Source: Escherichia coli (lineage in GTDB: Bacteria > Pseudomonadota > Gammaproteobacteria > Enterobacterales > Enterobacteriaceae). Taken from it: a DNA stretch of 64,000 bases. The notes beneath the pieces are model-generated. The model ran no database searches. It was not told the DNA's origin and saw nothing but the letters and a program-made list of their open reading frames with translations. Positions within the stretch are counted from its first letter, which is position 1. Every line of letters begins with the position of its first letter. This document shows positions 50,221 through 50,603 of the stretch, in pieces. The DNA lies in assembly GCF_017348835.2 (NCBI RefSeq), contig NZ_CP071375.1; one strand, written 5' to 3'. A program made the translations under genes and the position numbers.

Positions 50221-50307
50221 TCCAACTCCCTTTGCTCTGATTCAGTAAAAGCGAATGGAGGGAGATTACACGAGATAAAGAACGCGAGCGACAGTAAATT
50301 AGGTGCG

Positions 50308-50389
50308 AAAAAAAACCTGCGCATCTGCGCAGGCTGGTGTAATTCATGTGCTCAACCCGAAGTTGACTTCACCTATCAATACCTCTGGG
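50308..50389 (-). ncRNA. omrB: Omr-family small RNA, OmrB-like (OmpR-regulated, Hfq-dependent); single copy
   Basis: Minus-strand sequence CCCAGAGGTATTGATAGGTGAAGTCAACTTCGGGTTGAGCACATGAATTACACCAGCCTGCGCAGATGCGCAGGTTTTTTTT (hairpin + T8) matches my recollection of OmrB; located between aas and galR. Confidence 0.8.
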
Positions 50390-50603
50390 ATCACCACTTT
50401 AGCAACCTGAAGCCAAACGCCACCAGCGGTCAATCGCAACAGCGTTTCGCAAAGTGTAACCAAAGGTTTGCAATCTCTTTTTTTGTCTTACTTATTTGCG
50501 TTTGGCTCACATTCCCACTGATGAAAACACACCGCCCCTTGAACCAACGGGCGTTTTCCGTAACACTGAAAGAATGTAAGCGTTTACCCACTAAGGTATT
50601 TTC

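Follow-up and report, generated by a model that had tools for sequence, protein, structure and literature searches.

The spacer between aas and galR holds two sibling small RNA genes in Escherichia coli K-12, whereas a single Omr gene had been noticed in the same spacer of the E. coli stretch studied here, a window of 64,000 nucleotides that was analyzed at its full length. The questions raised by this locus are which of the two siblings is left, how the other one was lost, and whether such a loss is a peculiarity of one strain or a recurring event within the species.

The remaining sRNA gene and its surroundings

The spacer spans 50221-50603 (383 bp), as delimited by the list of open reading frames and by direct reading of the letters. 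An Rfam search of the entire window at the gathering threshold returned only one OmrA-B match (50308-50389, minus strand), covering the OmrA-B family model RF00079 over its full length (model positions 1-87) with a score of 86.1 bits against a gathering threshold of 40 (E = 2e-15). A permissive Rfam rescan of 49800-51000 revealed no second Omr copy, and the single Omr sRNA of the original prediction is thereby confirmed in number, position and strand. Its proposed identity as OmrB holds as well: 82/82 nt are identical to K-12 OmrB, including the characteristic length of 82 nt and an exact match of the OmrB-specific 26-nt central region, AGUCAACUUCGGGUUGAGCACAUGAAUUA included. The central region specific to OmrA, GAUUAUUCGGUACGCUCUUCGUACCCUGUCUCUUG, is absent from the spacer according to both the alignment and the permissive rescan. 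Further sub-threshold Rfam matches overlapping or adjoining OmrB, namely Leu_leader (27.8 bits against a gathering threshold of 50), TeloSII_ncR49, and a betaproteobacterial toxic sRNA, were rejected as chance matches.

The 5' seed CCCAGAGGUAUUGAU is present and identical (50375-50389, minus strand); within the RF00079 OmrA-B family, it constitutes the conserved single-stranded 5' segment that pairs with targets, and it is mostly unpaired in the predicted fold. This fold (-26.6 kcal/mol) consists of a central hairpin and a terminator with a 9-bp GC-rich stem, a 4-nt loop and a U8 tail. The Rho-independent terminator with its U-tail, representing the Hfq-binding module of the family, was also matched by a terminator scan. 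Upstream of the gene, the -10 hexamer TAAAGT was read from the sequence at 50396-50401, carrying the -12T described for omrB. A scan with the sigma-70 consensus detected no sigma-70-like site in the spacer, a null result that is expected and uninformative because the omrB promoter depends on activation by OmpR. The features of the locus are compiled in Table 1 together with other RNA genes of the window, among them a tandem array of tRNA-Met genes for which a change in copy number by the same kind of repeat mechanism is conceivable.

Table 1. Coordinates of the features of the aas-galR locus and of other RNA genes in the 64-kb window
Feature	Position	Strand	Description and basis
aas CDS	48061..50220	(-)	start codon ATG at 50218-50220 forms the left border of the spacer; ORF list, RefSeq annotation of the identical PE164 locus
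omrA-downstream flank, 87 bp	50221..50307	(-)	situated behind omrA where both copies exist; in the window directly 3' of OmrB
Crossover interval, 18-bp block GATGCGCAGGTTTTTTTT	50308..50325	(-)	identical in the omrB and omrA terminators; joint somewhere inside
OmrB sRNA gene	50308..50389	(-)	82 nt; 5' seed CCCAGAGGUAUUGAU, OmrB-type central region, terminator hairpin, U8 tail
omrB promoter/regulatory region	50390..50518	(-)	129 bp identical to K-12; alignment without differences
galR CDS	50604..51635	(+)	right border of the spacer; ORF list, RefSeq annotation of PE164
GcvB	16900-17105	(+)	Rfam, 199 bits
ES036/CssrF match	20120-20162	(-)	46.5 bits
Three tandem tRNA-Met (CAT) genes	21590-21886	(+)	110-bp spacing

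Breakpoints and probable route of the deletion

Comparison with K-12 DH5alpha provided the reference state. Its spacer measures 585 bp rather than 383 bp and hosts two Rfam Omr matches, OmrA (88 nt) adjoining aas and OmrB (82 nt) adjoining galR, in agreement with the earlier picture of two paralogs in a spacer about 200 bp longer. The tandem order, which had been given as omrA followed by omrB, needs to be reversed: both genes are transcribed towards aas, so that omrB is the upstream and omrA the second copy. Pairwise alignment of the two spacers yielded one clean gap of 203 bp, all other differences being 3 SNPs and one 1-bp indel located >129 bp upstream of omrB. In the window the 3' end of the sRNA is 87 bp away from the aas start, exactly the aas-omrA spacing of K-12, and 214 bp separate its 5' end from galR compared with 213 bp in K-12, reflecting the 1-bp indel. 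The anticipated match to the K-12 spacings is thus correct, with the figures put forward (88 and ~215 bp) each being one base off. Such a comparison is deterministic and leaves no room for chance.

With K-12 OmrB the window gene shares the complete RNA sequence, the 129-bp upstream region, the position and orientation between aas and galR, the seed, and the terminator stem-loop. The difference lies in what follows the gene. K-12 OmrB is followed by T9 and the omrB-omrA spacer, whereas OmrB of the window is followed by T8 and the flank normally found downstream of omrA, the partner omrA itself being missing. Two kinds of positions allow this joint to be placed. One loop base distinguishes the terminators of the siblings (GCGCAGAUGCGC in OmrB versus GCGCGGAUGCGC in OmrA), and behind the U-tract two-copy strains read T9 + GCCGGT after omrB versus T8 + CGCACC after omrA. 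The window carries a hybrid: position 50326 has the A of the OmrB loop, and position 50307 has the C (minus strand) that is the first omrA-flank-specific base, followed by GCACC. Being flanked by these two diagnostic bases, the joint must lie within the 18-bp block GATGCGCAGGTTTTTTTT. The same reading, T8 + CGCACC after OmrB, was obtained for all six genomes found to carry this allele (see below). Strain EK2009 has T8 instead of T9 behind its OmrB terminator, representing a length polymorphism inside the crossover repeat.

The block GATGCGCAGGTTTTTTTT forms the 3' half of the terminator of each sRNA. In K-12 it is the perfect core of a direct repeat (D1) of 38 nt with 89% identity, the copies of which are exactly 203 bp apart. 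The length of the deletion equals this spacing, and one hybrid repeat copy is left at the joint. A second direct repeat in K-12, 24 nt long and 96% identical with the perfect core GATCCCAGAGGTATTGAT, spans the 5' seed and has a spacing of 197 bp. Lost with the 203 bp are the omrB-omrA spacer, all of the omrA promoter, and the body of OmrA as far as its terminator loop; the 87-bp flank between omrA and aas is unchanged.

The direction of the change can be read from close relatives. Over ~12 kb the window shows 0 SNPs compared with strain PE164, a pig isolate from Nanjing. F2_81, a pig isolate from Australia carrying both copies, likewise differs from PE164 by 0 SNPs over ~12 kb around the locus, the indel apart, which argues that the single-copy state is derived and recent rather than ancestral. 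Judged by these flanking sequences, the loss of omrA in the window strain is a recent, derived deletion.

Taken together, the locus displays what a deletion between repeats is expected to leave behind, i.e., a deletion length equal to the repeat spacing, a hybrid joint, an undeleted near relative, and a reciprocal expansion in the population. We thus regard it as very probable that omrA was lost by deletion between tandem direct repeats, with an intact omrB gene remaining. The ancestor would have possessed the usual tandem pair of E. coli, omrB followed by omrA and both read towards aas. Misalignment of the two copies of the 18-bp perfect repeat would then have removed one 203-bp unit, leaving an intact omrB with its native promoter, 82-nt RNA and functional-looking U8 terminator joined to the sequence normally situated behind omrA. 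Since perfect homology is restricted to 18 bp, we infer a RecA-independent route such as replication slippage or sister-strand misalignment, possibly aided by the terminator hairpin.

The strongest competing explanation concerns this route only: the 38-nt repeats, which are 89% identical, would have undergone RecA-dependent unequal crossing-over to give the same deletion. The repeat attains 38 nt if two mismatches are tolerated, and a reciprocal triplication, as predicted by unequal exchange, does exist. The perfect identity of 18 bp is, however, shorter than the minimal processing segment of ~23-27 bp reportedly needed for RecBCD/RecA recombination in E. coli, and slipped misalignment, too, is reported to yield expansions as well as deletions where tandem repeats lie close together. 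RecA-dependent crossing-over is therefore considered rather unlikely. As to the original prediction of a precise one-unit deletion by recombination between the 3' terminator repeats, the single gap and the breakpoints inside the repeat stand, while replication misalignment appears no less likely than classical homologous recombination.

Irrespective of the route, the geometry of such deletions is restrictive. Each retains the promoter of omrB, the upstream copy, along with the flank behind the downstream one, so that only two products are possible, OmrB alone or a chimera of the omrB promoter with an OmrA body.

Distribution of single-copy and expanded loci in E. coli

The survey covered 5,426 complete E. 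coli genomes, of which 5,423 were matched by a 1,001-bp query comprising the spacer and its surroundings; in nearly all of these the query aligned in two pieces over a span of ~1,202 bp, and among the matches listed only PE164 gave a 100% match in a single piece. Three genomes had no match to the aas-omr-galR region at all, and two matches were located on plasmids. Ordinary BLAST tables merge the two pieces of two-copy genomes and are unfit for counting carriers. Alleles were accordingly counted with junction queries of 240-290 bp at E-value limits strict enough to exclude any match that is not contiguous, and all variant structures were confirmed by direct inspection and Rfam.

The full two-copy segment is kept in 5,406/5,426 genomes (99.6%). 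The OmrB-only allele of the window occurs in six genomes (0.11% of the 5,426), namely PE164, FDAARGOS_1287, MS20677, OkiPb01717, OZ039818.1, and A29. Ten of the 5,426 carry a chimera of omrB promoter, OmrA body and omrA flank that results from a crossover in the 5' repeat. The reciprocal triplication via the terminator repeat was found once (1/5,426; H52_982342), whereas the corresponding triplication via the 5' repeat was found in none, the junction spacer-OmrB-spacer being without a match in all 5,426 genomes. The deleted segment matches 5,417 genomes, which corresponds to the total minus the 3 genomes without the locus and the 6 OmrB-only carriers. Its absence from exactly these nine genomes implies by count that OmrA-specific DNA is present nowhere else in the six OmrB-only genomes, so that an OmrA-specific sequence is lacking from the interval and from the remainder of the carrier genomes alike.

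Inspection of the variant loci provided further detail. In the chimera genomes (L015-L024; e.g., L015 6101-6188, minus strand), the crossover lies in the 18-bp 5' seed repeat, and the ten genomes fall into ~6-7 haplotype groups. H52_982342 (L014 5898-6385) contains omrB, omrA and omrA in tandem with the predicted joint, its flanks being 1 SNP away from a two-copy O157:H7 strain. Two strains carry insertions between omrB and omrA: an IS200/IS605 element (Rfam STnc490 match) ~10 bp downstream of the OmrB terminator in strain 54214 (L025 ~900-1611), and an IS3-family element in strain 300709 (L026 ~1182-2395). Both split the omrA promoter from its upstream region. The sRNA sequences themselves vary in the OmrA central region, with U48A in UTI89, UPEC129, and Z1323MEC0001 (UTI89-like backgrounds) and U28G in Z1323CEC0015, and OmrB is invariant in all loci examined. 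Differences were also recorded in neighboring genes. The annotated lplT of OZ039818.1 (L006 ~2728-3861) falls 60 nt short of its length in the other strains, and the annotated araE of TUM14697 and 1002W03 is likewise shortened by 60 nt. A29 and Rb-23 carry araE as a pseudogene, with an internal stop in the former and in partial form in the latter.

The six OmrB-only carriers reside on six different haplotypes that differ from one another by no fewer than 72 SNPs per 11.7 kb, and several of them are much nearer to two-copy strains. From these flanking haplotypes, the same deletion is seen to recur independently in E. coli, and about a dozen independent deletions plus one expansion, none extending beyond 3 sampled genomes, would be the simplest reading of the entire set of variants.

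Alternatively, one deletion could have spread between lineages by homologous recombination instead of arising in ~6 independent events. E. coli does exchange short DNA tracts, and 5/6 carriers show 100% identity over the 282 bp surrounding the joint. This stretch is, however, nearly invariant across all E. coli. The lineage-specific SNPs of the carriers moreover persist to -151 and +306 bp of the joint, which would require each import to be smaller than ~460 bp, six times over, and the flanks of PE164 nowhere differ from those of a two-copy strain. Lateral spread of a single deletion thus seems improbable in comparison with repeated, independent loss.

It is still less plausible that both genes are really present and that an assembler collapsed the tandem repeat. 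Although short-read assemblers can collapse such repeats, the two units share only perfect blocks of 18 bp, below typical assembly k-mer sizes, and are otherwise divergent. The identical joint recurs in six independent complete assemblies from different laboratories, and the chimera and the triplication fit real recombination products better than software error. A deletion that arose in laboratory culture may be considered, an origin during assembly being the less likely of the two. Finally, a single copy inherited from before the omrA/omrB duplication, for which the one Omr in the aas-galR spacer of some Enterobacteriaceae species (PMC13425233) and in Yersinia enterocolitica (PMC12692685) could be quoted, is effectively refuted by the near-universal two-copy segment in E. 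coli, the SNP-free flanks shared by F2_81 and PE164, the hybrid of omrB terminator and omrA flank at the joint, and the scatter of the carriers over six haplotypes, each with two-copy relatives.

Expected consequences and meaning of the loss

Deletion between repeats leaves the promoter region and the RNA of omrB unchanged, and on this basis the retained OmrB should still be activated by EnvZ-OmpR and multicopy RstA (PMC13425233). It should likewise continue to repress the shared 5'-seed targets ompT, cirA, fepA, fecA, ompR, csgD, flhDC, flgM, and dgcM. The functions expected to be missing are those in which the siblings differ. The omrA promoter is almost completely rpoS-dependent owing to its -12C, in contrast to omrB, which has -12T and is not rpoS-dependent (PMC4447067). 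The central region of OmrA pairs with btuB, and deletion of omrA alone derepresses btuB ~1.5-fold in acidified LB (PMC11162775). Additional candidates for OmrA-specific targets are ycaM, mqo, and accBC (bioRxiv 10.64898/2026.06.26.734639). Extrapolating from the published K-12 work, sigma-S-dependent Omr expression and repression through the OmrA central region, e.g., of btuB, would both be lost in the strain. The redundancy attributed to the pair beforehand hence applies to their shared targets but not in full, given that omrA is read from a separate, sigma-S-dependent promoter (PMC4447067) and that some targets, among them btuB, are specific to OmrA (PMC11162775). Similarly, the assumption of a quantitative matter of copy number captures the dosage component of a loss that is predicted to be qualitative as well. 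The change is expected to exceed a halved dose and nevertheless to cause a mild phenotype.

Losses of either sibling have been described before. Among 27 E. coli/Shigella genomes, Skippington and Ragan (2012) found OmrA in all, as part of the core, and OmrB missing only in Shigella boydii (PMC3318445); the window strain shows the opposite, having lost OmrA and kept OmrB. Laboratory K-12 delta-omrA mutants (PMC11162775) are genotypically equivalent to it, with omrA absent and omrB intact, the difference being the natural origin of the window strain as a pig isolate. A 2026 paper reported OmrB-only and chimeric single-Omr loci among Enterobacteriaceae species (PMC13425233), and the same two outcomes are now encountered within E. 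coli (OmrB-only, n = 6; omrB promoter with OmrA body, n = 10). Compared with those loci, the E. coli case represents a polymorphism at strain level with a near-isogenic two-copy relative, so that breakpoints and direction become readable; recombination is not mentioned in the main text of that paper.

Overall, the window harbors a rare but recurrent natural omrA deletion, a minor variant that is neither a new element nor a new mechanism. What is newly added are the precise breakpoints, the near-isogenic parent state, the recurrence in E. coli, and a mechanical account of the published pattern. The practical importance is small.

In a wider sense, OmrA and OmrB serve as a textbook example of paired 'sibling' sRNAs, and the reason for keeping both is still debated. 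Recurrent yet rare losses fit an incomplete redundancy, with sigma-S-driven expression of omrA and OmrA-specific targets such as btuB. The omrB-omrA tandem may be a small rearrangement hotspot in which selection maintains both paralogs in E. coli, and whose geometry would explain why single-Omr loci across Enterobacteriaceae always retain the omrB promoter. We consider this broader interpretation evenly poised between being right and wrong. In this reading the two 18-bp repeats would keep producing single-copy derivatives, with at least ~12 independent events in 5,426 genomes plus a triplication, and the position of every derivative at a tree tip, with a largest group of 3, would point to selection for both paralogs. 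The deletion geometry offers a simple mechanical reason for the published rule that a lone Omr gene is invariably found with the omrB promoter. The window strain itself is a natural omrA knockout with a two-copy relative that is otherwise identical at the locus. If the hotspot interpretation is true, strains that lost omrA naturally and have isogenic relatives with both copies, as PE164 has in F2_81, would provide ready material for finding roles exclusive to OmrA.
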